From an uncultured virus (IMG/VR IMGVR_UViG_3300014205_000203) (lineage: Duplodnaviria; Heunggongvirae; Uroviricota; Caudoviricetes): DNA of 64,000 nt. The notes beneath the pieces were generated by a model. The model was not told the origin of the DNA. It was given only the letters and a program-made list of their open reading frames with translations, and ran no database searches. Positions 1,852-49,700 of this stretch are shown in pieces. Positions within the stretch are counted from its first letter, which is position 1. Each line of letters begins with the position of its first letter. The stretch lies in the IMG/VR virus record IMGVR_UViG_3300014205_000203; one strand, given 5' to 3'. Both the position numbers and the translations under genes were made by a program.

Positions 1852-1878
1852 TTAACCACTAACATAAACCATAACATC

Positions 1879-2382: not shown

Positions 2383-2814
2383 ATGAACGCACAAAACACA
2401 CGCAGCAATCAAATAACCTTCCTTACAGCCTTTAGCACTCTATGGGTTGATGTAACAGCCATTGAAGCGCAGGATGGCAAAAATGGGCTGGAAACAACAG
2501 AAGGAAGCGACCAGCTAACCATAATGTTAAACTCATTCTGTAATGTAACGGGGTTACCTCAAATGAGTGCAGATGATCTTCTATTGAAATTACAGGATGA
2601 AGAAGTAAAAGCAGAAGCAAAATTATTCTTCTGGAAAGATAAATCAGGTAGGGGACAAAGTGGGCCTGTTACATTAGCTGGCATCCTTAATACTGCCGAT
2701 GATGATGAAGTAAACTATGATGATATTAAATTGGCTGAATGGGCAGAGAGCGCAGAACAAGGCGAAGAATGGGAGAATAGCACCGACCACTATGTTTGCA
2801 CCGAGGTTAACTGA
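2383..2814 (+). CDS. Hypothetical acidic protein; stop codon lies in the hammerhead 1 core
   Basis: 143 aa ORF with an A-rich leader. It ends GTT AAC TGA. Confidence 0.75.
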   Translation: MNAQNTRSNQITFLTAFSTLWVDVTAIEAQDGKNGLETTEGSDQLTIMLNSFCNVTGLPQMSADDLLLKLQDEEVKAEAKLFFWKDKSGRGQSGPVTLAGILNTADDDEVNYDDIKLAEWAESAEQGEEWENSTDHYVCTEVN

Positions 2815-2861
2815 CGAGGTTTTAATAACCGAAACCGGACACCTGGTGTCCGGTCTTAACC
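2805..2861 (+). ncRNA. Hammerhead ribozyme, type I (HHR1)
   Basis: GGTTAA-CTGACGA-[GGTT ttaat AACC]-GAAA-[CCGGACAC ctg GTGTCCGG]-TC-TTAACC. Full core with perfectly paired stems I-III. Predicted cut after GUC at C2855. Confidence 0.95.
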
Positions 2862-2878
2862 AAATAAAAAGATCATTT

Positions 2879-3154
2879 ATGAAAAATTTAATCGCTTTTA
2901 TCATCATCGGATTGCTAATCCTGTCCTTCCCTGCCAATGCTCAACCAAAGGTTGTGGAAGATGCTAACGGTAACTATAAAGCCGTTAAGAGTACAACAGC
3001 ACCAGCGCCGGAGCCAGCAACCAAAACAAAGAAAACCTTTACAGACACAAAAGGTATTGTTTACCCTGTCATGGTATCAAAGAACGGTAAGGAGTTCTAT
3101 GAAAGAGTAAGCAAAAAGGGTAATAAATACCGTGTGTACATCAAGGTTAACTGA
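2879..3154 (+). CDS. Small predicted secreted protein; stop codon lies in the hammerhead 2 core
   Basis: MKNLIAFIIIGLLILSFPANA-Q is a Sec-type signal peptide. ATG 2879 follows an A-rich leader (track start 2717 rejected). Confidence 0.75.
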   Translation: MKNLIAFIIIGLLILSFPANAQPKVVEDANGNYKAVKSTTAPAPEPATKTKKTFTDTKGIVYPVMVSKNGKEFYERVSKKGNKYRVYIKVN

Positions 3155-3199
3155 TGATGGCTTTAATAGCCGAAACAGGCTGTAAAGCCTGTCTTAACC
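3145..3199 (+). ncRNA. Hammerhead ribozyme, type I (HHR2)
   Basis: GGTTAA-CTGATGA-t-[GGCT ttaat AGCC]-GAAA-[CAGGCT gtaa AGCCTG]-TC-TTAACC. One extra U follows the CUGAUGA box. Predicted cut after C3193. Confidence 0.92.
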
Positions 3200-3216
3200 A
3201 AATAAAAAACTACATC

Positions 3217-3558
3217 ATGTACACACTCAAAAACAAAGTTCAACTTATTGGAAATTTAGGCAATGCGCCAGAAATCAAACAAACAGAAAACGGCACTATG
3301 GCTCGTTTCTCAGTTGCTATCAATGAAACATTCCACAATGCAAAAGGGGAAAAAGTAAAAGAAACAACATGGCATAGTTGTGTTGCATGGGGTAAAGTAG
3401 CTAAGATAGTAGAGAAGTATTTAAACAAAGCTGGTGCTGTGGCTATTGAAGGCAAATTGATTAATAGAAGTTACACCGATAAGGAGGGTAACAAAAAATA
3501 CATTACAGAAATAGAGGTAGGAGAAATTCTTCTTCTTGGAATGACACAGGTTAGCTGA
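3217..3558 (+). CDS. ssb: Single-stranded DNA-binding protein (short form, no acidic tail); stop codon lies in the hammerhead 3 core
   Basis: NKVQLIGNLG, ARFSVA, TTWHSCVAWGK and EGKLINRSYTDKEGNKKYITEI motifs. Confidence 0.93.
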   Translation: MYTLKNKVQLIGNLGNAPEIKQTENGTMARFSVAINETFHNAKGEKVKETTWHSCVAWGKVAKIVEKYLNKAGAVAIEGKLINRSYTDKEGNKKYITEIEVGEILLLGMTQVS

Positions 3559-3602
3559 CGAGGATTTATTATCCGAAACTGCCAGCAATGGCAGTCTTAA
3601 CC
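3549..3602 (+). ncRNA. Hammerhead ribozyme, type I (HHR3)
   Basis: GGTTAG-CTGACGA-[GGAT ttatt ATCC]-GAAA-[CTGCCA gcaa TGGCAG]-TC-TTAACC. Stem I has a G-U wobble and stem III has a GNRA loop. Predicted cut after C3596. Confidence 0.95.
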
Positions 3603-3620
3603 AAAAACCAATTACACATC

Positions 3621-4091
3621 ATGGAAACAAGCGAAATTACTGACAGTAAAAATATCTTTGACGATGTTCTGACAGTTATACAAAAAACAAATGACGGTGC
3701 AAATTTATCACCAAAAGATTTACACCTTACCGAATGTGCTATTAATGGCTTTCTTACAGAAGAAGGGATAGCAGAGTTTTACAGCGTGTATCATAGGGTT
3801 ATAGATGGCACCTATGATAAGCTAAAAAATTACCTGTTCGGAGTTGAACACATTACTAAAGACCATGAATGTTATGTGTATTACAAAGGGAAGCACATAG
3901 ATCATTTTACTTTCAATGGAGATTATAAAGGAGAAAGACAAGCAGCCATTAAAGCGGCTAAAATATGCTCACTATTGGAAAGTAAGAATATTGAAGTATC
4001 ACCGCTTACATATTGTTGGAAGGTGGAAGATTACCTGACAGCAGAAGAACTTGCAACCATTGAAGAACCAATGGGAGCATACGCAGATTAG
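3621..4091 (+). CDS. Hypothetical protein
   Basis: ATG 3621 follows the leader ttaaccaaaaaccaattacacatc. The ORF is flanked by HHR3 and HHR4. Confidence 0.75.
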   Translation: METSEITDSKNIFDDVLTVIQKTNDGANLSPKDLHLTECAINGFLTEEGIAEFYSVYHRVIDGTYDKLKNYLFGVEHITKDHECYVYYKGKHIDHFTFNGDYKGERQAAIKAAKICSLLESKNIEVSPLTYCWKVEDYLTAEELATIEEPMGAYAD

Positions 4092-4101
4092 CCCAGTCAG
4101 A

Positions 4102-4206
4102 GGTTAACTGATGAAGGCTAATTGCCCGAAAATCGGTAAGCAGTAACAAAAGCTGTGTGCATCATGTACCAATGGTTTGTTATAGAAGTCTTACCGATTA
4201 TTAACC
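4102..4206 (+). ncRNA. Hammerhead ribozyme, type I variant with extended stem III (HHR4)
   Basis: GGTTAA-CTGATGA-[aGGC taatt GCCc]-GAAA-[ATCGGTAAG...49 nt...CTTACCGAT]-TA-TTAACC. The cleavage triplet is UUA, with the predicted cut after A4200. The base of stem II is an A-C mismatch. Confidence 0.8.
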
Positions 4207-4223
4207 AAAAAAATTGAAATACT

Positions 4224-4868
4224 ATGTACACACCCAATCCAGAAATCGCCAAAATAATTTATCCTCTTAGCTATGTAAACGGCTGTATAGTTGATAAAAT
4301 TGGTCAGGTAATAATGAAAATGAACAGGGAACACGATAGCACCCCTTTAACCCCATCTTACAGAGATGATCTTGCAAAAGAAATTGTCGAACTGTACAAC
4401 AAAGCACATAGCCCGTCCTTCTTATTGTTAAGCTGGTGTACAGAAGATGTAATTGATAGGGCAAATGATATTGAATATGAGCATGAGATAACAGAAGAAC
4501 AGGCTATTGAAATTCTGGCTATGCTTGATGATGCACACGATGCCAATGTTGGCATTAACTGGGAGATAATAGATATAGTTACCCAGCAGTATTTTGATGA
4601 AAAGGAAAAGGAGAAAGAATTAAGCGACTTATCAAAGTTTGAGTTTCGGGATGGCAATTTCTACCCTTATGTAGAAGTTATGCTGCATGGCAATCTTGAA
4701 ACCATATCTACTGAAAGCCTTAGTAAAGTATTGATGAATGATGATGGCACAGAGCCAGTTAGCGAAGAAGCTGAACGCATGGACAATGCTATTTATTTCT
4801 ATGTACCAGATGAAATGATAACAAAGCCATTATCGGAACTTAAAAAATACATATTAGAACACGAATAA
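4224..4868 (+). CDS. Hypothetical acidic protein
   Basis: 214 aa ORF starting 23 nt after the HHR4 cut site. Confidence 0.75.
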   Translation: MYTPNPEIAKIIYPLSYVNGCIVDKIGQVIMKMNREHDSTPLTPSYRDDLAKEIVELYNKAHSPSFLLLSWCTEDVIDRANDIEYEHEITEEQAIEILAMLDDAHDANVGINWEIIDIVTQQYFDEKEKEKELSDLSKFEFRDGNFYPYVEVMLHGNLETISTESLSKVLMNDDGTEPVSEEAERMDNAIYFYVPDEMITKPLSELKKYILEHE

Positions 4869-6964: not shown

Positions 6965-7660
6965 ATGCAGGAACTTATAACAGTTACGATAATGTACCGC
7001 AATAATTATGATGGCGGTGATGGGTGGACTTACTACCCAATGAGAATACGAATAGGCAGTAAATGCCCTGTTTGTAATGGGCTACGTGGTAAACCATACG
7101 AGTATAGGTTTTGTGATGATGGCGAATGGTTTACAGTTGATAAATGGGATAACCCGTGTGGGCACCTTGACAAGTATGGAGATGTTTATAAAGAATCAAA
7201 AAAAATTACAGAAATGATCTACAACGAATTTAAGCCGCTAAATTTCCCCGATGGGGTTAAATCAGTACTAACAGCCGAACGCTATCAAGGAACGCCGGTT
7301 ATTGTCTATACCAATGGCATAGAGCAGCATGTTTACAACATGGAAGGTGAACGGCTGGCGCTGCTATCCAGTTTCAAAGGAATAGACTTTTTAAAGCTGT
7401 CTTCCTCGGGTAAATGGTTTGCTTATGCCGGTGTGTATTTGAAGACAAGGAATTTGGGTAAAATCGTTCTGAATGAGGCTGTAAAGTTTGTTATAACCGA
7501 TGTGCTGGTGTACGATGGCGAATGTGTCATTAATATGCCTGGGGAAATAAGGGTACAAACATACCTATCAAAAATGCAGTACCATCCTGCAGCCGGGAAA
7601 GCGGAGATTTACAATTTTGTATCAGGCACCCCGATAAGTGGTGTATTTATAAACGCATAA
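6965..7660 (+). CDS. Zn-ribbon-like domain fused to a degenerate ATP-dependent ligase-like domain
   Basis: N-terminal CPVC...CGH. The C-terminal half has AERYQG (cf. KxDG) and ITDVLVYDG (cf. ligase motif IIIa). Confidence 0.45.
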   Translation: MQELITVTIMYRNNYDGGDGWTYYPMRIRIGSKCPVCNGLRGKPYEYRFCDDGEWFTVDKWDNPCGHLDKYGDVYKESKKITEMIYNEFKPLNFPDGVKSVLTAERYQGTPVIVYTNGIEQHVYNMEGERLALLSSFKGIDFLKLSSSGKWFAYAGVYLKTRNLGKIVLNEAVKFVITDVLVYDGECVINMPGEIRVQTYLSKMQYHPAAGKAEIYNFVSGTPISGVFINA

Positions 7661-8343
7661 TGATAGTAACAATCAATACAGATGCCTCATGGCACCCAAA
7701 AGAAAACTATGCAGGATTTGCTTTCTGGATAGTTTGTGATCAGGGTAAGTTTTGCCATGCAGGTATTTTAAAGAAACGGGTTATGCGACCAGAGATCGCA
7801 GAATTTAAGTGCATCATTAATGCTATCTATGTGCTGGGTAAACTCAATTACTCTAACGTAAACAAGATCATTATAAACACAGATTGCCTTAATGTTATTC
7901 ACCTGATTAAGAAGGACAAGAAAGCCATTAATATGTATGGTCTTCATTGGGGTAAGCACCTGGTATTAGAATATGAAAGATTGCTTAAAATTCAGAAAAT
8001 ACCAAAGAACAGATTTGATTTCCGGCATGTAAAAGCCCATGAAGAAATAAGCACTGCAAGGCAATATGTAAATGACTGGTGCGATAAAGCAGCGAAGGAA
8101 CAAATGTGGAAGAAGGTTAACAGTACAAAAGCTATTGTAAAAAACTGGAATGATTTAAAAGATCAGTTTGGATATGAAAGAGCAAAGCTGCTGGCTATGT
8201 CTGTAAGTAATGGTATTACTTGCTGGCCTCCACCTGACCATTTGGAGTTTCCATGTAGCGACAATAGTGATGCTATTGCATTATTCAGCCTTGTGGAAAC
8301 AGATAAGAAAATAATTTACGAATACAGAGGAACAGCTAATTAA
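7660..8343 (+). CDS. RNase H-like (RNase HI fold) protein with C-terminal extension
   Basis: INTDAS, AEF, INTDC, RHVKAH and NDWCDKAA match the RNase HI acidic catalytic pattern. Confidence 0.85.
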   Translation: MIVTINTDASWHPKENYAGFAFWIVCDQGKFCHAGILKKRVMRPEIAEFKCIINAIYVLGKLNYSNVNKIIINTDCLNVIHLIKKDKKAINMYGLHWGKHLVLEYERLLKIQKIPKNRFDFRHVKAHEEISTARQYVNDWCDKAAKEQMWKKVNSTKAIVKNWNDLKDQFGYERAKLLAMSVSNGITCWPPPDHLEFPCSDNSDAIALFSLVETDKKIIYEYRGTAN

Positions 8344-36700: not shown

Positions 36701-36828
36701 TTGTAAATAGATTGCAACCCAGCATCCAAATTTTTGGCAACACGGGAGTACGCAATAAACTCAACAAGATCGTTAAGGTCGTTGCGTAGTGTGGTATTCT
36801 TTACTAAACAAGAAATATCAAGCATCAC
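33712..36828 (-). CDS. Large helical protein, putative injected (cargo) virion protein
   Basis: 1038 aa, follows the giant polyvalent genes. C-terminal HhH-like ILPGIGPKT. Confidence 0.55.
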   Translation of the reverse strand: MMLDISCLVKNTTLRNDLNDLVEFIAYSRVAKNLDAGLQSIYNDIRMSGIEVDLQTIGFIYNDVLPKSYAQFDSDHDVNEYALKSYNDAINRAARLEAPEQLERQIGQNSPDLEVVNGILNMFTKLNTEISDPIYSDMRMMQEALWKGIQRKLNLTNSAVPKDQKDWEELLTQALGYENLGMTDINGRLNGIDDLFNSMKDQLDTATQEMEAKGDYATAQKWREMTGKLKASAYSLLFSKQEAKTFITSIMKEAGYGKELKDGKTVIDWKKLSNETGSVLDIYNNIDRVMRDKGYSDSVIDGVQDSFVNELNDLNAKIVEWRLKQMENKSEALNRASNKKTDLKRLAELNNLGIFQSAHDKLLSSVVGISDLQAQDLADLEELAKAASNLYREIDKNYGNDVFASSALQTIQRHIDRIVQRNINNKSVLMRIISAIKNFMDILLTGMLMGPLTIMENWLSGIKETMTPILSGKAKFTNTEDREVYRSVLADVIVRGQAYGEEVGSFAPRELYSNSLRWKWKGGTLKDKAESVLYGLMAPARLGLLGFDSANKAVITNKTFHNAMYQALLQHGKTEEEAANILNEALHGKKFEDAKTDASDILNNINTQLSAKYAIPVNNSTITRLANDLVKANLNTDGLFTDRAKAIEIVVSTLKGSYHVAGYGLGHEPNNPLSKMIKDARDRMVKGEEKLRSAKKWDRLAWHKLGSTFMNGMILRFTGGATNWVVLRAQSGLGLGIASGFLGGNANADIDFKNTDTIKQSIRERLGARNQIGRGMAGLSYTLMGYVVYYLLTKGGDDDRERKKKRLEELSKYVQTPEVKLEIKQLTSEASIMQQIKSSYMGNRLFKKVSPDLMLLQYYVQTDKNAWMGATNYVIKTSGIASDFSTASKFNDAMNYYRNNEIDPGNGALASIAGDRTAVPLWRAYKDWYKLGNWIVGNNVSSDFKKPTNISEGIFGGGALEDWGVYQRNSSITILPGIGPKTIERYKTLGIENMGDLEKNPGWENMMYINEKGQPEFILDSDDRKAAKAAAEKWIKEN

Positions 36829-39800
36829 TTACATTTATCAATGAAATTTTTAATTTTGTCAACTATGCTGCTCATGCCTCCCTTCTTCGCAATTTCATCT
36901 GCTTTTGCAGCTGCAGTTTTTTGCGCTTCAACCGGCGACATAGTTTTTTTATTCTGTTTCTTCTTTATGTTGTCAGCTTTTTTTTCTGCCGCCTCTGCCT
37001 CTGCCGCATCCTTCTCCTGCTGACTGATTTTACGAAATTCTTCAATTCCCGCTTGAACACGACTTTCAATATCGGCCTGTTCAGCTTGTAATTTACGTAA
37101 TAAGTTTTGGTCTTTAATTTCACGTTCTTCAAGTATTTGGTTAGCAAATAGATCACCCATATATTTATCACGATACAACCGTAACAATGCACCGGCAGAA
37201 ACCTCTTTACCTCTTTTATTCATGTACTCCTGATAATACTGTGTAACTGCATTATCCAATCCACGCAGTTCATCTACCCTTTCTGGATTACGGTTTATTT
37301 CTTCCCGAATTTCTCCCAGGAAGGTTGCCATCAGCACTGCTTTTTTAGCCAACAGTTCTTCATCACCACTCATGCCTTTAATATAATTGAAAAGAGGCTG
37401 GCCGTAATCGGATAGATCGCTGCCCCATTTTCCCATTGCGGCACCAATCATATTTTTACCATCCTGCAACATATCAACACGGCGCTGGGTGAGGTAGCTT
37501 TGATCTCCTTCTGGAGCATAACCCAAAGCGGAAGTAATTGTATTACCGGAAAGCATATCCTTCACTTCGCCAGAGGTTGACATTTGATAATCACCGATCG
37601 GGTCCCGGCTTTCCCATTCTTCATAATCTTGTTGGTTGTCCTCCTGTTCTTCTTCCTTCTGGCGCTCTCTTAAAATATCAGCAACAGCACGGGTAGAAAA
37701 TTCTTCAAAGGTTAAATTTTGAAGTTCTGCAGAAGTAATATTGTCAAAGCCTAAAGCATTTTTGATAGCATTCCATAAAGATTTTAACCATGCAGTAATG
37801 CCTTCTTTTCTTGCTTCTGTTACAAACTGGGCTCCTTTATCTCCAATAGCCATAGCAAGAGCCTCATGCTGATAAAACCTTTCTCTTTCATCCTCTGCAA
37901 GTTTTGCAGCCTGTTGTTGATAGAAAGGATTTGATTTTACTTTGTCCAGGTACGAACTGCCAGAAACAAGTTCAATACCACGGTTATAAATTTCTGGTCT
38001 GTTTTGTTGTGCCCAATTAGTCCAGATATGCCCAGCTTCATGGATGGGGGTATTAGGATTAAGATGTTTACCGTTAAGATAAATTTTACCGGCATGAGTA
38101 AATCCTAAAATTTTACCTTCTGGTGAATACTGAAAGAAAACATCATCCAACTTGTATTTTTTAATTATATCCTTAGCTTCCTGCATTTCTGAATCTCTAA
38201 AAAATTCTTGTAACACAGGGGTTCCTTCCGATATATAAATACCTATCATCCTTTCAATAAACTTGTGTGCATCATATTCAAGACTACCTTTTCTATCATA
38301 CTCTATGCTATCGTATTCTTCCTGTGTAGCATAATCCTTTTGGTCAAATTCCACTTTACTGGAATACTGTGCAGCATGGGCTAATTCTGTTACGAAATCA
38401 TCAAAGCTGGCAATGTTACCTAATTGAATATTTCCTTTAAAAATATCGGCTGTCGCATAAGGCCGCTTTCTGTTAGCCAAATCATATTTCGTCCTTAAAA
38501 TATCAGGCTTACCGAAACGCTCCCATAATTTTAAAGCCCGTTCTATAACTTCCTTTGGCGCAACTTCATCATTAACAGCATAAGATTGTTGCAACAACTC
38601 AACAACAGTATTTTTAGTAGAAATATCAACTTTAGGGTTTGATGTTGAAAGAGTAATTGTAGTTAACGCAGCAGCTACAAAGTTCCTTACATAATTCTGG
38701 TATTCCACATTGCCCAGTTCTGCGGCTTTATCTTTTAAAGCCTCTGTGTTTGGTAATATCTCAACCCCATTGCCATTAATAGCATTAAGGTTACTTTCAA
38801 TTCTATCAATCACACTCATTACCATAGCAAAAGGTGTATCTTCTCCCCGGCCATATTCGTGGTATGCTTCTTCTACCAGTTTACGCATTTGTGGTGAATC
38901 ATCTTCCAGTTCCGTAGCTACAAGGTTTTGAATATCCACCAGACGATTATTACCCAGGTCTATTTGCTCTTTAACAACTTCCTGCATTTCCTGTATTTCA
39001 TCGGGAGTAGGGCCGGTAACAGAAAATTCAGGTTCCATTTCTGCATCATCCTCATTTGGCCGTCCTTCCTCTTTGTAGGTGAAGAAGCGGAAACCATCTT
39101 GCTTTGCAAGGTTAACCATGTGCCCTAAATTGCCGGAAGTTTTTAAACCCAGTGCATTTGATAAGTCCTGATCATTTGCTATTCTTAGCACCTGACCATC
39201 TGAACGGATAACATATAAATTTTCCAGTTCAAATTCATTAGGAAATTCTTCACGTTCGCCCAGGGCTTCAAGTTCTTCAGCAGAAGGAACACTTTTTTGT
39301 TTTGACATTTCATCAAGCAAAGTGGCTAACCTCAATTGATTTGCAACAGCATCTTCCAGTTCTTTTTGTTTAGGAAATTCGGCTGGTAATGATTCAAGAT
39401 ACTGGCTCTTGTCCTTAATATCTTTTTCATAAGATTTAAGCCACCCCTTTTTTCGGTCAATATCTGGTTGCTGGTTCCTTATTTCACGTTGGAAGTACCC
39501 AGCCAGACTAACAGCATCAACAGAAAAAGACGGGTCGTATGGAACATTAGAAATAGGGCTCTTAACTGTGAAGTATGGCACTAATTGAACTCCCTTTTCT
39601 CCTTCATCCCCCCTCATTTTTATAACAACATCAAAGCCAGCAATATTTCCTATCACTTTTGAATCGCTCTTTACCTCTTTCCAATCTTTCTTTTTTAATT
39701 TAAGAGTTTCAGGATAACGCTGTACAAAATCCCTGATATAATCTTTCCGAACCTGCAGCAGTTTATCTCCGGCTTTTTTACGCTCTGTAAATTCTTCGCC

Positions 39801-42800
39801 GCCAATTGTAATTTTATATTTCCATTCGCCGGTTTTTTCATCCTTTTCAGAATTTTTCTCAAACAGATCTTTATCCTTTTGTAATTCTGAAATTTGTGCT
39901 TCACTATCAGCCATATTCTTTTTGCTCCATGCTATCTTATCTTTCAAGCTGTACTTTTCCTGTTCAAATGCTTTTTTAGAAGCATCCAGGTCTTTTACTT
40001 TTTTATCAATCTTCGCCTTCTCCAACAAGATAGGGTTACCGGAAAGCATGGCCGTCATAGCTGCAAACGAAACACCGTTTTCTTCATCACCGTCGCCCTC
40101 TGATATTTCACGGGCAGCACCTTCACCAGTTTTAGCCTGATTGATGAATTTTTGTTTTGCATCAAGCAACTGGTATTTATAAGCATCCAGAGTTGCTTCG
40201 GTGGCATAATAATAAATAGGTATTTTATTATTGTAGTGATTTTTAATGATAAAGTTACCCTGACGAATATACCTGCCATTCCTTTGCTCCATATCCGATG
40301 GCCTCCACGGTACATCAAGATGATGCCCAGCTACTACTTTATTTTGCACGTTAACACCAGTTCCCAATTTTGAAGTGCTACCAATGATCACCCGTATTTT
40401 ACCGGCACGGGCATCTTCAAACATCTGCGCTCTGGAAATATCACTTTTGTAATCATGGATAAAGACAATTTCCTCACTGGGGATGCCACGTTTGATTAAC
40501 TTATTTTTAAGTTCTTCGTAAATGTTAAAAGTTTCTTCATTTGCTTCATTAACCGCTTCCTCAAACTCTGCTTCTGTGTATTCCAGTTCGGATAATATTT
40601 TGTCCCTTATTTTTTCAAGGGTAGGAAATGTTTGTCTGTCAGAATATGCACCGGCACCAAAAATATTTTCCATTATTTCCCGATCGACACCACGGCTTTC
40701 AAGCAAATCAAAAAGGTTTGCTCTGGTGCTGGCAGCTTTAGGAGTGCCCAGGTCGCTAAATACTAACTGGATGCCTTTAAGGGCATTTGATTCATTATAA
40801 TGCCGGGTAATGTAGTCAGCAGCCACACCTAACTTACCTACTTCAGTACTTGCATAAGATGGGTTTATCAACTTCATATCAATAGCCATCTTAGCAGCTA
40901 AACCAGTTGCCAAAAGCATGTACGACTTTTTCATGTTGTCGTTCATCTTTACGCCGATGTAAGAACCATCTTTTGTTTCTGCAAATTTTTGAATTTTCTT
41001 TGCATACTTTCTTTGCTCTAAAGTAGGAGCAATATTTACCAGCAAACCATCTGACTTTTCACCTTCGGTATAATTTATTTTTTCATCACCATGTACAATT
41101 TGACCGGCATTTGGTACTACCCAATCATCATTACCATCTGACATAAGGCTAATCCAAAATTCATTTTTTTCAATTCCTTTTATGCGGCCAATAACTTGAA
41201 ACTTATTACCCTCAATAGTTACATTTTGGTTAGCCAGAATTTCTTTATCAGTTTTAACACGGAAGGTTTGTTTTGGAACGGGTTTATCCAGTTTTAAATT
41301 GCTGTCATTCCGAACGTCTGAAATCTCCCTGTACATGGCGCTCATTTCAGGCACGTTCATAAATTCACGCATCCTTACTTTTGGCTTCAATGAATTTGTA
41401 ACACCAAACTCAATTTCAGAACCAACCCGAGCAAAAGTATTTGCCCACTGATCGAAGGAGTCAATACCCATTTCTTTCAGCTTATTTGGCCGCAGGTATT
41501 TAAACAGCGAATACATTTCAACCATAGTATTGCTGATGGGAGTACCGGAGGCAAACACAGTTCCTTTATCTGCACCGTACATCTTCTGCAGGGACCGGAT
41601 GGCAAACAGCATATTAAATGCTTTGGCTGAACCTTTGGGGCTACCCAAACCAGATATACCACGCTGTATGGTATTGTATGCAAGGTTTTTGAACTGCTGG
41701 CTTTCATCAACAAACATAAAATCAATACCCATTTCCTCAAAGGTTTTCAGGTAAGGATCTTTGGGCATTAAGCGTAGTTTATTCAACCTATCTTCTAAGT
41801 TCTGCTTCCTTTGTTCCAAACCATTCAATTCACGTTTTGACAGGTCATGATCTTTTGCTATTCTGATATCATTATCAAGAGCCTCAATTTCTGCGCTGAT
41901 AATTTCGTCCTGAATTTCCCGTGATTGCTCAATTTTCCCAAACTGGTCATGTGTCATTACAATAAGATCCCAGTTATTGTTTGCCATTTTTGCAAAGAAG
42001 GCACGGCGATTCTGTGGGGTAAAATCTTTTTCCTTTGGAGAAAGAACCTTACCCATTGGAAAGGAGTTTTTATATTCTCTGGCTAAGTCAGCAGTATTGG
42101 CTTTTAAACCAATAACAATAGGCTTTTTAAACAATCCCATCTCTTTACCCTTGTTGGCTGCCAATGCCATTAAAAGCGTTTTTCCCGAACCTACAATGTG
42201 ATCGATGATACCACCCATCTGTTGTAATATCATCCAAACTCCATCAAGCTGGTGGCTTTTTGGTGTATGCTGACCGGCGTATCCTGGGAAAGAAAGATTG
42301 CTACCATCATATTTTCTGGTAACAACATTATTATAATTTTGATTGTAGTATTCAACCAGATCATTTCTTCTATCATCATCTTGCCATATCCAGTTATCCC
42401 ACGCCTGTTTTATTTTATTAACCTTATCGTTAGCCTCTTTGGTAGCCTGATCATTTACAACGGTAACCTGTGGTGGACCTTTGAATGTATCTTTTACAAT
42501 GGGCATCCGGTTTTGTATCGCTTCTGCCAACAATTCAAAGCCATCCATCCTTGTAGTTCCGTACACATCTGTTATTTCGGTATTGTAGCTGCTATTGCCT
42601 GAAACACTTACACGTCCGGTAGATAGTTTGGTAACATAAACATTCTGTTTGAATATTTGGGATGCAAACTCATTCAGATATTTTGTTGAAATCCACGGCG
42701 CAGAAATAGGAGCATATATTTGAGATGCGTTTAAGTCCTGTGGTTGTGCAGCTTCAAGAGCAACAACATTTTCTTCAAAAAATTTATCCTCTGTGGCTGC

Positions 42801-45800
42801 AGTTTTTGCTTCTCTTAATTTCTTACGTACATCACCAGACAGGTATTTATCTTTGGTTTCAAAATCTCCGGTAATAGGATTTTTATATATCAACCCTTTC
42901 CCAATTTCAATAACTTCCTCGGGTGCTTTACTAAGGAGCCCGGATATTCTATCTAAATCAACACGGCCAGTTTCATTCAGGTTAATGGCTATGGCTTCAT
43001 GAATATCTTTTGCTGATTCTGGTCTGGTAACTTTCTGGAAAACACGCTTTGTAAAAATATCTGCAAGGCTTACTACTTTTTTATCTACCACATTTTCCAA
43101 AGCCAGCATATTGTAACCATCAATATCAATATCAACAAGTGGCTTATTGGATAATAGAGTACCATTGTTTTTTACAAAAGTTTTATATGCTTTATTAAGG
43201 TCTGACCTTTTCCCTTCAATAAAATCAGTTCCCATATCTCCATACTCCGCAGCATACAATTCATTTAAGGCTTTGCGAAGGGGAAGAAGGTCGGTAACAG
43301 CCTTGATATATTTTTTTGCAATTTTTACTGGCTGTACTTTCTTAATTTGGAAATCATCGTAAGTAAGTCCTGTTTGTTGTTTAAGCCATTCATATTCATC
43401 TGGCAGTAGATCATATTCCCTTATCTTATCAGGATTAACACCAACGGAACGGGCTTTTGCATCCAGTTCTTCATTAATGGCAAGTTCATCTGAATAAATA
43501 CCATATTCTCCCGGCGATACTTCAACAATATTACCTGGGCGCTGGCCGTTGTTCTGAACAAACTGCTCAATCTCCTGCTTTACCTCATTGTCTTTTTCTT
43601 GTTGTTCAGTTTCGGCTATTTTAGTTTTAAATATTTTCCCAGCAAGGGCGCTGATACCTTCTTCAAGATTTATACCTGTTGGCAATACTGTTATATCATC
43701 CGAATTTTCAGAACTTCCATACATAGAGAAGGCAACCACTTCACCCAGTACCATATCAGGGTTATCATGGAAATACTCATTGTAGGCAACATTAAACATC
43801 TGGTCCTTATCCTTATGTTTAAGCTGTGCTGTTTTAATTTCTGTGAAAGGATGATCTTGTTTTTTTTCTTCGCCTTCTGCAAACTTGCGTAGGAAGATGA
43901 TATCAGTTGTTACCTGTGTATTTGCATTTCCACGGAAAGAATCATTTGGCAAACGGATGGCCCCTAAAAACTGGGAACGGTCAGCCATCATTTCCCGTAG
44001 GTTGGCATTAATATTTGAATCTAATATGCCGGTACTGGTAACAAAGGCAATTAAACCATTGGGTTTAACGTCCTGCAAAGCACGGGCAAAGAAATAAGAG
44101 TGGATGCGGTTTTGAGATTCTTTTAATACAGGATCTTTCCCCTTTTCAAAATTAATATCGGTAACTTTTACTTTACCGAAAGGAATATTTGAAATAACAA
44201 GGTCAACACTACCTGGGGGAATTGCTACGTCCTGATACCCGGTTATTTTGGAACTGATATTTGGATAAAGCCCTTTTAAAATCTGTCCGGTAATGTTTTC
44301 AACTTCAATAGCAGTAATCTTTGAATTGTCTGCTATATCCCGTGGCATGGCACCAATGAAATGCCCAGTACCGGCACTGGTTTCTAAAATATTACCTCCT
44401 TTAAAACCAGCTTCCTTTAAAATATTGTAGATACCACGGATGATAGGAATAGCGGTATAGTGTGCGTTTTGTGTTGATCTGGTTACAGCATCCAGATTGG
44501 CTTTATAGTTTTCTTCATCAAGTTCTCTTATAACATCATGTGCTTCCTTAATTTTTGAACGAAGTGAAATATTAGATGCCTTCCAACTCATATTGCTGGA
44601 TGGATTAAAGCCTATTTCTTTAATGCCACCCCAGCCAACATATTTGAACAAGGTTTTTTGTTCTTCATACGTAGCCCTTCTTTTTTCTTTTGAAAGACTA
44701 ACCAAAACTCGTAAAGCATCTATATTATCTTGTAGCTTTTGCGCTACATTAAAACTCTTGGTATTTACAAAATCAAGAGGAATAACAAAATTTTGATTGT
44801 GCTGCAGTTCTGAAATAACAGGTTTTTGTTCAGCAGGTTCAGGCGTAGGTTGTTCCATAGATTGGCCTCCCAGTTCTCTATTAAGTTCTTCGTTACCATT
44901 TAAAGGGACATCAGCGTTTCCATCACTGTTTCCTGTGCCTGGTTCGCCGGTGTTCCGTTCCCCACTAAAGTTTCCTGCATCGTTACTGCTGCCTGTACCT
45001 TCTTCACCAGCCACAAGTCCAGCGTTTGGTTGTCCTTCATTTCTTTGTACATCTCCGGGTGTTCCGTTTCCAACCACTCCTTCAGGTCGTTCGTCCACGG
45101 GTGCGCTAATAGCATTTGTTGATTGTCGTCCATTTTTAATATCATTTAAAATGTTATCAAAAGTTACTCCACGTAAATTGGGGTCCATATTATTGGCTTC
45201 ATCTTCGGTAGCTTTTGTGTTATAGTAATATCCATATACGCCGGATAATTCTTCAAAGAAATCTTTAACCTTATCACCCCATCGATCGTGAAGATCTTCT
45301 ACAATATCAGAAAATTTATAAACCCCGGCTTTCATGTAAAGACCAATAAGTTTAACCCCTTTTTCAATTTTAACAGGGTCAATACCTCCACTGGTTAAAA
45401 GATTGCCACCTTTGGTAAAATCATCAAAGGCACTATCAATATCTTTTTTTAATTGTTCATCCCGGATAATTCTTTTTTCTTCTTTGGTGGTAACAGGAGT
45501 ATTGTTTTCATCAACCAGTTTGCCATCTGAAAAATGAAGCTGCTTTATATTTCCTTTTTCATCATGTAGTTCATACTTGCCGTCAGATATAGATGCAAAT
45601 GTTACAATGCCGGAATATTCGCCAATAAATATTTTTTTACCTGTAAGGGCTTTAAATTCTTTATCTGGATTAGGTTTTGACATTTCAGAAATAGAAGGTG
45701 TTATGTATTTTTTTGCCTCATTTCTTAATATCTCGGCCATTTCTTTAGCGGTAATATTATCATGCTTCCATTGATTTGCACCTTTATATTTAGCCTGACC

Positions 45801-46562
45801 TTGTGCAGCAGGTTCTTCCAATCGATAGAAAAAACCTTTGAAAGTATAATTGTCATAATGGGTTGTGTATTCAGGTTCGTACTTAGCCTGAATATACATT
45901 TGGTATTGCGTACCAGGTATGATCATTCTAATAACAATATCGCCACCAGCAGGAGCAATATTAGGATATACAGATTGAAGCTGCCAGCCATTTATTCTGC
46001 CAATTTCTTTGGCGTATTTTACTATTTCATGCTTTGCCTTTTTACCAATTTCTCTATATGGTAACTCATGGTTTATATTTTCAGTTGACCAACTTGCAGT
46101 AAGTTTCCCAACCTTGCTTTGAATTTCATTTAAGGATGCTTCTACCTTTTCGATGGCTGCATCAATTTCTGTTTCCGTTTGAGCATTTTCTCCTTGGTGG
46201 ATAATAGCTTCTGCTGTACTGATGATAACTTCTGTACTGCGCTCTGGTTGGGCAGTGTTGTTGACTGTTGCATTTTCAGCTTCTTTAGTTATTAATTGGG
46301 AAAACAAGTCTATAACTTCCTTCGTTTCCTTTATATTATTTTTTCGTGGTGGTATAGCAGGTAGGTTTGAATCGATTTTATTTCTCAATTCATTATAATT
46401 CACTATTAATTTATCGTAGTGGGCCAGAACAATGGCTTTGCCAATAATTTTTTGTTCTTCCTCGGACAAATCGGTATCGTCAGGAACTTGTCTATCAAAT
46501 TCCAATTTAAGCGCCAGCAACGCTTTGTTCTTAACCTTATCAAAACAATTTATTTTAGCCAT
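36825..46562 (-). CDS. DarB-like polyvalent protein: N6-adenine MTase + SNF2/SF2 helicase + zincin-like domain
   Basis: ILETSAGTGHF and ISNIPF (MTase). HIVGSGKT, FVDESQ, SGTPISN and QRNGRYIRQGN (helicase). PIHEAGH (HExxH). Confidence 0.88.
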   Translation of the reverse strand: MAKINCFDKVKNKALLALKLEFDRQVPDDTDLSEEEQKIIGKAIVLAHYDKLIVNYNELRNKIDSNLPAIPPRKNNIKETKEVIDLFSQLITKEAENATVNNTAQPERSTEVIISTAEAIIHQGENAQTETEIDAAIEKVEASLNEIQSKVGKLTASWSTENINHELPYREIGKKAKHEIVKYAKEIGRINGWQLQSVYPNIAPAGGDIVIRMIIPGTQYQMYIQAKYEPEYTTHYDNYTFKGFFYRLEEPAAQGQAKYKGANQWKHDNITAKEMAEILRNEAKKYITPSISEMSKPNPDKEFKALTGKKIFIGEYSGIVTFASISDGKYELHDEKGNIKQLHFSDGKLVDENNTPVTTKEEKRIIRDEQLKKDIDSAFDDFTKGGNLLTSGGIDPVKIEKGVKLIGLYMKAGVYKFSDIVEDLHDRWGDKVKDFFEELSGVYGYYYNTKATEDEANNMDPNLRGVTFDNILNDIKNGRQSTNAISAPVDERPEGVVGNGTPGDVQRNEGQPNAGLVAGEEGTGSSNDAGNFSGERNTGEPGTGNSDGNADVPLNGNEELNRELGGQSMEQPTPEPAEQKPVISELQHNQNFVIPLDFVNTKSFNVAQKLQDNIDALRVLVSLSKEKRRATYEEQKTLFKYVGWGGIKEIGFNPSSNMSWKASNISLRSKIKEAHDVIRELDEENYKANLDAVTRSTQNAHYTAIPIIRGIYNILKEAGFKGGNILETSAGTGHFIGAMPRDIADNSKITAIEVENITGQILKGLYPNISSKITGYQDVAIPPGSVDLVISNIPFGKVKVTDINFEKGKDPVLKESQNRIHSYFFARALQDVKPNGLIAFVTSTGILDSNINANLREMMADRSQFLGAIRLPNDSFRGNANTQVTTDIIFLRKFAEGEEKKQDHPFTEIKTAQLKHKDKDQMFNVAYNEYFHDNPDMVLGEVVAFSMYGSSENSDDITVLPTGINLEEGISALAGKIFKTKIAETEQQEKDNEVKQEIEQFVQNNGQRPGNIVEVSPGEYGIYSDELAINEELDAKARSVGVNPDKIREYDLLPDEYEWLKQQTGLTYDDFQIKKVQPVKIAKKYIKAVTDLLPLRKALNELYAAEYGDMGTDFIEGKRSDLNKAYKTFVKNNGTLLSNKPLVDIDIDGYNMLALENVVDKKVVSLADIFTKRVFQKVTRPESAKDIHEAIAINLNETGRVDLDRISGLLSKAPEEVIEIGKGLIYKNPITGDFETKDKYLSGDVRKKLREAKTAATEDKFFEENVVALEAAQPQDLNASQIYAPISAPWISTKYLNEFASQIFKQNVYVTKLSTGRVSVSGNSSYNTEITDVYGTTRMDGFELLAEAIQNRMPIVKDTFKGPPQVTVVNDQATKEANDKVNKIKQAWDNWIWQDDDRRNDLVEYYNQNYNNVVTRKYDGSNLSFPGYAGQHTPKSHQLDGVWMILQQMGGIIDHIVGSGKTLLMALAANKGKEMGLFKKPIVIGLKANTADLAREYKNSFPMGKVLSPKEKDFTPQNRRAFFAKMANNNWDLIVMTHDQFGKIEQSREIQDEIISAEIEALDNDIRIAKDHDLSKRELNGLEQRKQNLEDRLNKLRLMPKDPYLKTFEEMGIDFMFVDESQQFKNLAYNTIQRGISGLGSPKGSAKAFNMLFAIRSLQKMYGADKGTVFASGTPISNTMVEMYSLFKYLRPNKLKEMGIDSFDQWANTFARVGSEIEFGVTNSLKPKVRMREFMNVPEMSAMYREISDVRNDSNLKLDKPVPKQTFRVKTDKEILANQNVTIEGNKFQVIGRIKGIEKNEFWISLMSDGNDDWVVPNAGQIVHGDEKINYTEGEKSDGLLVNIAPTLEQRKYAKKIQKFAETKDGSYIGVKMNDNMKKSYMLLATGLAAKMAIDMKLINPSYASTEVGKLGVAADYITRHYNESNALKGIQLVFSDLGTPKAASTRANLFDLLESRGVDREIMENIFGAGAYSDRQTFPTLEKIRDKILSELEYTEAEFEEAVNEANEETFNIYEELKNKLIKRGIPSEEIVFIHDYKSDISRAQMFEDARAGKIRVIIGSTSKLGTGVNVQNKVVAGHHLDVPWRPSDMEQRNGRYIRQGNFIIKNHYNNKIPIYYYATEATLDAYKYQLLDAKQKFINQAKTGEGAAREISEGDGDEENGVSFAAMTAMLSGNPILLEKAKIDKKVKDLDASKKAFEQEKYSLKDKIAWSKKNMADSEAQISELQKDKDLFEKNSEKDEKTGEWKYKITIGGEEFTERKKAGDKLLQVRKDYIRDFVQRYPETLKLKKKDWKEVKSDSKVIGNIAGFDVVIKMRGDEGEKGVQLVPYFTVKSPISNVPYDPSFSVDAVSLAGYFQREIRNQQPDIDRKKGWLKSYEKDIKDKSQYLESLPAEFPKQKELEDAVANQLRLATLLDEMSKQKSVPSAEELEALGEREEFPNEFELENLYVIRSDGQVLRIANDQDLSNALGLKTSGNLGHMVNLAKQDGFRFFTYKEEGRPNEDDAEMEPEFSVTGPTPDEIQEMQEVVKEQIDLGNNRLVDIQNLVATELEDDSPQMRKLVEEAYHEYGRGEDTPFAMVMSVIDRIESNLNAINGNGVEILPNTEALKDKAAELGNVEYQNYVRNFVAAALTTITLSTSNPKVDISTKNTVVELLQQSYAVNDEVAPKEVIERALKLWERFGKPDILRTKYDLANRKRPYATADIFKGNIQLGNIASFDDFVTELAHAAQYSSKVEFDQKDYATQEEYDSIEYDRKGSLEYDAHKFIERMIGIYISEGTPVLQEFFRDSEMQEAKDIIKKYKLDDVFFQYSPEGKILGFTHAGKIYLNGKHLNPNTPIHEAGHIWTNWAQQNRPEIYNRGIELVSGSSYLDKVKSNPFYQQQAAKLAEDERERFYQHEALAMAIGDKGAQFVTEARKEGITAWLKSLWNAIKNALGFDNITSAELQNLTFEEFSTRAVADILRERQKEEEQEDNQQDYEEWESRDPIGDYQMSTSGEVKDMLSGNTITSALGYAPEGDQSYLTQRRVDMLQDGKNMIGAAMGKWGSDLSDYGQPLFNYIKGMSGDEELLAKKAVLMATFLGEIREEINRNPERVDELRGLDNAVTQYYQEYMNKRGKEVSAGALLRLYRDKYMGDLFANQILEEREIKDQNLLRKLQAEQADIESRVQAGIEEFRKISQQEKDAAEAEAAEKKADNIKKKQNKKTMSPVEAQKTAAAKADEIAKKGGMSSIVDKIKNFIDKCK

Positions 46563-46719: not shown

Positions 46720-49700
46720 TTATGAAAACAAACAATCAATTAAATTTTTTATCCCGTATAACTGGTTTTTTATTTCCTCATACTCTTGCCGGTTGCCTTC
46801 GGTTGTTCCTGCTAAAGTAAAGAGATCGGTTATCAACATGGTTTGCATATTGATATCCGGTTTCATTATTTCATTGAGCCGGGTTGTCTTTTCTTTTTCA
46901 AGAACATTAATTTTTTCAGCCAGATTTGCTTCGGATTGTTCTATTCGCTTTGCGTTAACGTCTTCCCCTGCAATAATCTGTTCTCCTTCTTGAATGGATC
47001 TTGCAGCAGTGTCCGGGCTTTCCGCATTGCGTTCAATATCCTCGATAATTGTATCGTCCTCCTCAATTTGTTCGGTGTTATTGATAAAGGCGTCAACTTG
47101 TTGTTCTGTAATGTTTCCATTGTCAATTTCAGTTTGAATATTATCGAATAGGCTTAGTATTCCTTTATTGGCTTCGCTGATTGCGCCTTTCTTTTCTTTC
47201 AGCTTTATATAATCCTGCTGCATCCTGCTAAGAATAGCATTATCAGGGACCAACTTTTCTGCAACTTCCTGTGGGGTTAATTGTGCCTCGTTATACTTGG
47301 TCTGTTTGTCCGCAATTATTTTTTGTTGGTCCTTTATCTGCTTTTCTTTATCCGATAGCTGTTGTTCGTAGGTTTCATCCACGTAAGATTTTGTTGCCTT
47401 ATGCGCCAGATTAAGTGGGTTTTCAGCATTAAAATCAAAACCAGAAACAACATTGTTAATCCGGCTACTGATCTCAGCCAGATTCTTAATTTTAGAATAG
47501 GCACCATCCTTTAACCAGTCAAATATTTCATTCTCATGCTCATTGGTAAGCTGGGGGAACTGCTGCCGTACTTCGCCGGTCCATCGGGCCATCTGCAATG
47601 AATTGGCTTTACTCTTGGTATCACCTTCCTGTCCCAATGCCTTTAAAAATGCAATAGCCTTACCATTAGGGTTTAAATAAGACAGGGCAATGATGGTGGG
47701 TGCATTTCTACCCTCGTACTCTTTAGCCTCATTTAAAATCGCTCTGGATGATGTACCATGCAATCTTGCTTCACGATAGTAGTTAGCCCTTTCAATTGGT
47801 GTTTCTTTAGTGGAAAGAGTATTGGAGCGCAAAGCAATGGCAATAGCATCTTCCTTGCTACCTTCAAATATTTCTGCCGGGATGGTATCAAAGCCAGCGT
47901 AGCCACGTATGGTTAACTGCTTAAATGCTTCAAAACGGGAATGGCCGGAAAGAACATAAAGCTGGCCGTTGTTTTTCCAAAGTGTAATCGGGTCGAACTC
48001 TGTCCAGGTAAAAGTATCTTCCTGCACCGCTTTTAAAATCTTATCAACACTTTCCTGACTAAATTCTGTTTCACGATTTTGGAATGATGATGTGTCGGTG
48101 CTTATGGAAGTAAGAGGAACATCAACAATTTTTATTCGCTGGGAACCAGGTGTTACTTCGGGTTTATTTATTTCAAGAAAATCGGCAGACAACAAATTAA
48201 TTTGTTTATCGAGATCAATATTCTTTACAATCTTATCTTCTGTTTGATTTTTAGCATCGAATATTTCAGTTACTTGAAATTCCTTGTTAGTTTCTACAAA
48301 CGATTTACTTCCAAACCTGCCTCCTTTTTTTATGTTTTCTTTTAAAGAATTAATATCTTCCTTATCTACCCAATAATATGTAGTGAAAAAATTATACCCA
48401 ATTTCATACGAACTTACCTTAGAAAACGGCTCTATTAATTCATTAGTTGCATACCCCCCCTCTGCCACTACGTAACCATCTTTAAAAGGAACAATAGTTA
48501 CTACGCCTTTTACATCTCTCATTTCGTTTATCGTTTCCGATAAATTTTGCAATTTGTCGTTTGTAGATGGTAGCCCTATTTCTTTTAAAATTGATGTCAA
48601 ATCTTTATCAGCAGCATCATTATTTTGTTTTGCCTTTGCAGTTTTTATTTTTGGTACTGGCTTCTCTATCTCTGCTTCCAAATTTTCATCCTCAATATTT
48701 GATACAACATTTCCTTCACCACGTATCAGTCTATCTTCATTATCAATTTGTATTAATCTTACAATACCATTTTTGCCTTTATCAACGCCTTCTACAACCC
48801 ATCTATTCTTGCCCCAGGTAAATGTACTTCCCCTTTGAGGATTTGGCACTCCTTGTTTTTGAACAGTGGTAGAATCGGTAGATAATGTTACAAAGCTATC
48901 AGCATAACCGATACTTGGATATGATTTATCTTCTTCTATTGCTCTCGGATTATCTATTAAATCCTGAACAGTTAAAATAGGAGGCTGACCATCTTTATAA
49001 TAATAAAATTGCTTTCCAGCTTTTGGTTTTATAAGTTTTACTTCTTCTATTTCCAGTTCTTCATACCTATCAGTAAGTTGCTGTACTCTTTTATCATAAG
49101 AATCTTTCAGTTCTTCAATCCTTTCCTGTTTAAACAAATCAGAACTGTTTTCAATTTCAGTTTTCCTTTTATTGAAAATATTTTTTGCTTTGGTTAAAGC
49201 CCGTTTTTTCTTTTCTTCTATGGGTAGCCGGGTATCTACATTATAAGGAACCCTAAACACTTGACCTTCTTCTGAAATTTCACCACTGGCTAATTTTTCA
49301 ATATAATCAATTCCGATTTTCATACCTTCCCCCACTCTCCTATCCATTTGCCCCAACAACCATTCTTTTCTTGATGGCAATTTTTCTGCTGCGGCCTTTA
49401 CTCTTGCAATTTCTTCTGGCGTGTACAATAAAGGTGCAGCTTCCCTTTTTTCGGCTTTCTCTTTTAAATAATTTTCGTACTTGCCAGATTGATTTATAAT
49501 ATTAACATTCATCCCGGCACTGTACTTACTCATGTACACCTTTTTATCAATTATTTCATAATTGATCTTTTTTAATTGTGGTTCAGCTTTAGCATTATCA
49601 ATAGCTTCGTCTTTTGAAAAACCTTCGGAAAGTATTTTGCCAGTAGCAACTTCTACTACTTTCCAATTCATGCCAGTATCTTCTTTACCTACAACCGTAT

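Follow-up and report, generated by a model that had tools for sequence, protein, structure and literature searches.

Four tandem type I hammerhead motifs between small phage genes, with linear single-gene mRNAs sharing a leader as their probable products

Hammerhead clusters that flank single genes or short gene blocks in prophages were described in 2011 (PMC3088659), where linear products of the expected kind were obtained in vitro from three tandem arrays, and from one of these in E. coli as well, and where circular and spliced products were named as alternatives. Tandem type I hammerheads are also known from animal non-LTR retrozymes, from which they release units of 170-400 nt (PMC7229834), and type I hammerhead cleavage has been tied to translation initiation in fungal viruses (PMC13725137). 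The role of bacterial hammerheads was called largely unresolved in a 2019 review (PMC6765202). The locus presented here resembles the clusters of PMC3088659 in that same-strand hammerheads lie between small phage genes, an arrangement for which cutting of a polycistronic RNA was proposed there, and three of its genes are each bounded by two hammerhead copies. It offers a compact test bed for the question of why phages cluster self-cleaving ribozymes between small genes.

The virus record comprises 85,700 nt (85.7 kb), of which the first 64 kb form the window, i.e., the whole stretch of DNA that was analysed. Exact 123-nt inverted terminal repeats at the genome ends (1-123 and 85578-85700) indicate a linear genome, and a large terminase and virion proteins are encoded in the record. 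The array sits close to one genome end in a series of small plus-strand genes, preceded by a cytosine methylase and a RadC-like gene, and from this position and content we infer that the array genes are early genes. An RNase H-like gene at window 7660-8343 belongs to the same series, and two very large ORFs lie on the minus strand, one (36825-46562, 3245 aa) with weak methylase, SNF2 and helicase domain matches and the other (46720-53718, 2332 aa) with no Pfam or PHROG match. The best named relative of the single-stranded DNA-binding protein (SSB) encoded in the array is a Chitinophagaceae protein (77% identity), and the array's form of stem I is also present in two Chitinophagaceae genomes (L651, L727), so that a Bacteroidota host is likely. 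Searches of the phage for tyrosine integrase PF00589, reverse transcriptase, RtcB and PF09414 RNA ligase gave no match, and a T4 RNA ligase 1 search gave no signal even in controls. A sigma-70 promoter and terminator scan showed no excess over shuffles, the sigma-70 model being ill-suited to Bacteroidota. The features of the array and its surroundings are as follows, in window coordinates:

1852-1878, plus strand: leader of the RadC-like gene, starting TTAACCA, with no hammerhead upstream
2805-2861, plus strand: type I hammerhead 1, predicted cut after 2855 (GUC)
2856-3193, plus strand: predicted fragment 1, 338 nt, with a 23-nt leader, ORF 2879-3154 and the body of hammerhead 2
2879-3154, plus strand: 91-aa protein with a hydrophobic N-terminus and no assigned function (phrog_16207)
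3145-3199, plus strand: type I hammerhead 2, predicted cut after 3193, with a competing inactive fold
3194-3596, plus strand: predicted fragment 2, 403 nt, with a 23-nt leader, the SSB gene and the body of hammerhead 3
3217-3558, plus strand: short SSB, 113 aa (Pfam PF00436)
3549-3602, plus strand: type I hammerhead 3, predicted cut after 3596, with a G-U pair in stem I
3597-4200, plus strand: predicted fragment 3, 604 nt, with a 24-nt leader, ORF 3621-4091 and the body of hammerhead 4
3621-4091, plus strand: 156-aa protein with no Pfam or PHROG match, its stop 10 nt before hammerhead 4
4102-4206, plus strand: type I hammerhead 4, with a 67-nt stem III region and a predicted cut after UUA at 4200
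4224-4868, plus strand: 214-aa protein with no assigned function, 23 nt past the last cut (part match to phrog_10258)

All four motifs carry the CUGANGA...GAAA...NUH core and fold as a three-way junction with an open 6-bp stem I. Every copy has UUAACC as the 3' arm of stem I; the 5' arm reads GGUUAA except in copy 3, where it reads GGUUAG. Hammerhead 2 has an extra U following A9, and in hammerhead 4 the basal pair of stem II is replaced by an A-C mismatch. The core UGA is at the same time the stop codon of ORF 2383-2814 in hammerhead 1, of ORF 2879-3154 in hammerhead 2 and of the SSB gene in hammerhead 3. A strict scan found copies 1 and 3, with zero matches in 30 shuffled genomes, and a relaxed scan, to which this shuffle control does not extend, found all four copies and no more in the 85,700-nt genome. 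Scan and folds bear out the description in the earlier note of a stem I common to four copies whose stems II and III vary, and the fragments of 338, 403 and 604 nt that it had proposed were recovered with exactly the same coordinates. Rfam 15 reports no hammerhead in the window at the gathering score or at E up to 5, which we take as a gap in the model because the motifs carry the hammerhead core consensus.

Cleavage at these sites is predicted, with probabilities of the active fold in context of 0.44 for copy 1, 0.16 for copy 3, 0.002 for copy 2 and below 0.001 for copy 4. Copies 2 and 4 are thus predicted to prefer inactive folds in context, and cutting may be partial. The alternative fold of hammerhead 2 is the more stable one; in it the arms of stems II and III trade partners with stem I staying paired, and it could slow the cut controlling the SSB leader, the top gainer from cleavage. 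At window 4089-4120, the bases past the stop of ORF 3621-4091 seem able to base-pair with the hammerhead 4 core, and a terminating ribosome might block this pairing and so couple cutting to translation.

Hammerheads of the same build are found in many other viruses. A search with the GGUUAR/UUAACC stem I fixed gave an estimated 630 viral stretches, with 111 of the 129 returned loci passing the scan, and a search by one pattern with stem I free and loop II and core fixed gave an estimated 1200. All family counts given here describe partial, pattern-defined samples in which related phages are not independent. In the stem-I-free search, stem I has exactly 6 pairs in 162 of 171 unique matches and is flanked by A on both sides. 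Three further viral scans, with N7 or the second stem II pair fixed as in the seed copy, and one genome scan were also run; the enlarged set holds 486 unique viral copies, in which 128 stem I variants were counted (counts require at least 5 pairs in stem I). The form seen here, GGUUAA/UUAACC, is the commonest one but accounts for only 21 of the 168 stem-bearing matches of the stem-I-free search and 86 of the 486 copies, so that a mere family consensus was rejected as a full explanation of the match between our four copies. The subfamily is of type I topology, its stem I is 6 bp long with an A on either side, and loop II is a 5-nt U-N-A-R-U. An ATG-led ORF of at least 30 codons begins 8-60 nt past the cut in 551 of 627 unique members, with the distance from cut to ATG peaking at 18-31 nt, and the stop of the upstream gene falls within the 5' arm in 69 of 410 cases and coincides with the core UGA in 81 of 410. 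Pairing kept over 128 stem I variants is covariation in keeping with a type I hammerhead, stem I being open and stems II and III closed; covariation in a hand-picked set of 12 copies is illustrative only.

Completeness reaches 90% or more for 38 of 47 hand-picked long records, and a single detectable copy is present in 18 of these 38 (an automated count gave 20 one-copy phages, of which 2 with a second site were taken out by hand). The architecture is retained in solo copies, 75 of 76 having a 6-bp stem I, and GGUUAA is about as frequent among them as among array copies (14 of 76 and 56 of 276). Rfam found two tRNAs only in 15 single-copy loci and the rest of the phage genome; since Rfam misses this hammerhead family, its silence says little about other ribozyme classes beside the solo copies. 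Two further occurrences may be recorded here. In the crAss-like phage cr11_1 (RefSeq NC_055876.1, L258:3990-4056), an intergenic type I hammerhead missing from the annotation is built much like ours but has another stem I, and arrays of 9 and 6 copies (L673 and L694), in which the 3' arm is invariant and the 5' arm switches between the perfect and the wobble form, lie on short contigs of one Aliivibrio MAG and possibly represent misbinned phage.

Variable as stem I is across the family, within arrays it is far more uniform than stems II and III. In the unconstrained sample, neighbours could fully cross-pair via stem I in 30 of 57 pairs against 3.7 expected. Neighbour pairs are enriched for stem II (16 against 8.2) and stem III (23 against 4.8) as well, which means that ancestry contributes to the match. 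At the variable positions of stem I, the excess identity over 198 pairs is 0.57-0.75, against 0.10-0.33 in stem II and 0.23-0.36 in stem III; for leader positions outside stem I it is 0.26-0.36. Counted by array cluster (n = 63), stem I comes out ahead of both stems II and III in 41, versus 16 (p = 0.001), and it is still identical in 27 of 65 pairs in which stems II and III have diverged. By these sequence comparisons, the match within arrays is a genuine pattern of the family and more than copy ancestry. Coding overlap was rejected as its cause, with an excess identity of 0.70 in the 17 pairs where both stops precede stem I and 0.73 in the 83 overlapping pairs. Between related phages whose downstream proteins are 45-65% identical, stem I is kept (excess 0.78, 21 pairs) and stems II and III are saturated. 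The two arms also differ, the 3' arm being more conserved than the 5' arm in 18 versus 2 of 199 pairs and in 14 versus 2 of 109 arrays (p = 0.004).

The earlier note had proposed that the common stem I lets each excised gene RNA close on itself, giving circular or re-ordered mRNAs, an old alternative already published for clustered phage hammerheads. In its strongest form, this explanation holds that the match was selected because it allows the closed RNA to become a functional circular mRNA, with the ribozyme or the host's RtcB doing the sealing, which we regard as improbable. Array specificity, the greater uniformity of stem I and its survival in pairs with diverged stems II and III are all in keeping with such selection, and tandem type I hammerheads do circularise in animal retrozymes, where RtcB seals 30-80% in vitro (PMC7229834); RtcB is present in 5 of 5 tested Bacteroidota genomes that bear this ribozyme family. 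The phage, on the other side, has no match to RtcB or the PF09414 ligase, self-ligation of retrozyme monomers amounts to 1-3%, with fast ligation by natural type I hammerheads also cited (PMC7229834), and circles were sought and not detected among clustered prophage hammerheads according to PMC3088659, in which those data are not shown.

The ends of each of our three fragments are indeed complementary and could rebuild a nicked hammerhead, as the earlier note had seen; closure is predicted for the 403-nt SSB fragment only. Closure of that fragment has a predicted probability of 0.42 at 37 °C and 0.09 at 20 °C, compared with about 1e-4 for the 338-nt and 5e-5 for the 604-nt fragment. Closure appears feasible for typical fragments of the family, with a median predicted probability of 0.25 (n = 35, of 36 candidate fragments), all of these values coming from naked-RNA models without tertiary contacts or ribosomes. 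Gene bodies, however, do no better than control sequence for closure (20 of 35, p = 0.17), and there is no additional pairing past the 6 bp. Single-gene fragments are fully closable more often than longer ones (66 of 93 versus 52 of 106, p = 0.002), a trend which favours circles and which is gone once arrays serve as their own control (6 versus 7, with 15 ties).

If circles had been selected, the 5' arm of the downstream copy should fit the 3' arm of the upstream copy better than in the reverse combination. Differing neighbours do not favour the circle pairing (21 versus 38 of 198 pairs); after de-duplication the counts are 15 versus 23 (p = 0.26), and among 93 single-gene fragments they are 8 versus 13. 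Adjacent copies match no better than non-adjacent ones (0.67 over 135 pairs and 0.65 over 173), fully closable fragments make up all of the fragments in 49 of 109 arrays, some in 19 and none in 41, and 43 of 199 fragments pair at no more than 4 of 6 positions. One-copy phages are moreover common (18 of 38 near-complete genomes), and none of 5 loci with distant homologues of the first cassette gene (38-50% identity) holds a hammerhead; no close relative of that gene was found among the viral contigs searched. Three closer homologues of the 91-aa protein, known as protein sequences, end in residues that encode the 5' arm here. A stop-free circular frame occurs in 0 of 199 family fragments. Lastly, a sealed junction would rebuild the ribozyme and be re-cut unless misfolded. 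This difficulty would be avoided if the array-specific 6 bp acted as a barcode for an RtcB-sealed, stable coding circle kept from a second cut by an inactive fold or by the passage of ribosomes, a version that we likewise consider unlikely. With no comparative test in favour of circle pairing, two of the three fragments predicted to stay open and a shared leader that probably explains the match, the proposal of circular or re-ordered mRNAs is not supported.

End pairing might also act without ligation, as a nicked closed loop that shields the ends from nucleases outside translation. No ligase is then needed, and the predicted probability of closure exceeds 0.1 for 23 of 35 family fragments. 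The tests of direction and adjacency are negative for this explanation in the same manner, and, judging from ribosome footprints in general, a ribosome terminating at the core UGA would disturb the helix, as would another that loads onto the 23-nt leader; we give it little credence. Any copy within an array is, furthermore, compatible with any other, so that a swap of ends in trans could in principle yield functional mRNAs in which genes are re-ordered or skipped. A slight excess of the skipping-type pairing (38 versus 21, p = 0.036) is seen before de-duplication and is gone after it. The intermolecular helix of 6 bp is weak (about -5.6 kcal/mol), each junction restores a ribozyme that would re-cut it, and spliced products were not detected according to PMC3088659. 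End-swapping would alter no protein because every gene has its own start and stop, and as a function of the array it is very improbable. A comparison with integron-like cassettes was also made and rejected, there being no bias toward pairing of a cassette's own ends and no PF00589 in the phage; many stem I arms resemble integron core-site motifs, with an exact fit in 65-66 of 544 (about 12%).

A further explanation, which is possible although we would not bet on it, places the cause at the level of DNA, either as duplication with cassette exchange inside the core or as slower evolution of stem I. Recombination in the core would split the arms of stem I and move hairpins II and III intact, so that only stem I is kept uniform. 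The symmetry of the pairing (full pairing in 118 circle-type and 121 reverse combinations of 198), the array-wide uniformity of stem I and its retention between phages with saturated stems II and III all fit. Among 199 neighbour pairs, 16 share all of stem II only and 6 all of stem III only, and in one array (L075, from the stem-I-fixed search) a wobble copy coexists with the two perfectly paired forms. In the main set, however, both parental forms are present in the array for 0 of 48 wobble stem I copies, and two DNA runs, of which one may be the source and one covers short pieces only, showed no deletion joints. Recombination alone also leaves the greater conservation of the 3' arm unexplained, and the solo-orthologue control for slow evolution is small, with 23 pairs mostly from one lineage.

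The reading that describes the locus best, and which we consider likely, is one of linear single-gene mRNAs with an open shared leader of 23-24 nt. The four hammerheads would cut an early phage transcript into linear single-gene mRNAs, each starting with the same open, A/C/U-rich leader of 23-24 nt. The weak 6-bp stem I would let the product go, and cleavage would free the initiation region; each mRNA would then start with a 5'-OH and finish with a hairpin whose 3' end is a cyclic phosphate, with possible effects on translation or stability. The likeness of stem I from copy to copy is likely due to its 3' arm, with which the shared leader starts, and the 5' arm would follow the leader through complementarity. 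Paired ends, and now and then a circle, would arise as side products, and duplication or cassette exchange at the DNA level may add to the uniformity.

The arguments for linear single-gene mRNAs are the conservation of the 3' arm, its recurrence in front of genes without a ribozyme, the spacing to the ORFs and the predicted opening costs, along with the frequency of one-copy phages, the unchanged architecture of solo copies and the linear products reported for the arrays of PMC3088659. The motifs, their spacing, the comparative patterns and the leader start on ribozyme-less genes are read directly from the DNA. Each predicted cut lies 23-24 nt upstream of an ATG. The predicted cost of opening the leader to +15 is 3.4, 11.7, 2.4 and 3.3 kcal/mol for the four genes before cleavage and 1.9, 1.6, 1.0 and 0.5 kcal/mol after it, the largest fall being that of SSB. 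A freed initiation region should matter here since initiation in Bacteroidetes is tuned by structure and A-3 and not by a Shine-Dalgarno sequence (PMC6847099); A-3 is present in three of the four leaders.

The leader start is not confined to genes that follow a ribozyme. The leader of the RadC-like gene begins TTAACCA, and that of the next gene, which also lacks a ribozyme, begins TTCACCA (2353). Across the family, the heptamer that begins with a locus's own 3' arm is found, equally far from the ATG, in 32 of 2336 leaders whose genes have no detected ribozyme, compared with 11.4 +/- 3.4 in 60 permutations (maximum 18), and the excess persists without the UUAACC class (18 versus 6.2). Of these 32 leaders, 28 have no core upstream, 3 follow missed ribozymes and 1 is apparently spurious. 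At one locus (L143), whole leaders match those of ribozyme-led genes. Classes of stem I also track the type of leader, some being mostly without and others mostly with a Shine-Dalgarno-like motif. Against the leader stand the small share of ribozyme-less leaders with the exact heptamer (about 1.4%) and the higher closability of single-gene fragments described above, and the ribozyme-less heptamer leaders could be relics of lost ribozymes or reflect common base composition. Moreover, since uniformity drops sharply in the leader beyond stem I, the constraint on the leader must be strongest on its first six bases.

What the comparison adds is a large type I subfamily missed by Rfam, whose stem I is free to vary between phages, hardly changes inside an array and is linked to the leader. 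Should circles turn up, they would amount to protein-coding circular mRNAs made naturally by a DNA phage; our evidence does not point in that direction. A search of the literature on phage hammerhead arrays gave no report of circles, with subscription papers and preprint supplements largely outside its coverage.

Set against the clusters of PMC3088659, the motifs here differ in being all of type I, with a 6-bp stem I, and invisible to Rfam. An array-specific stem I held in common with the leader is absent from the text of that paper that was examined, and four motif searches of its supplements gave no match, although gapped or cut alignments there could conceal the subfamily. With the retrozymes of PMC7229834 the array shares tandem type I hammerheads, as well as 5'-OH and cyclic phosphate ends that are able to rebuild the ribozyme. 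Retrozyme units, however, are tandem repeats of one element whose circles have been shown experimentally, whereas the phage units are unrelated protein-coding genes with only the ribozyme and the leader in common, in a DNA phage that gave no match to reverse transcriptase. The paired totivirus ribozymes of PMC13725137 have been proposed to yield circles, with rod-like units of 3n length and stop-free frames; the lengths of the phage fragments, unlike those units, are not multiples of 3. In position the array resembles the fungal-virus case of the same paper, in which a type I hammerhead also lies just upstream of an ORF, there in RNA genomes of eukaryotic hosts and here in a DNA phage.
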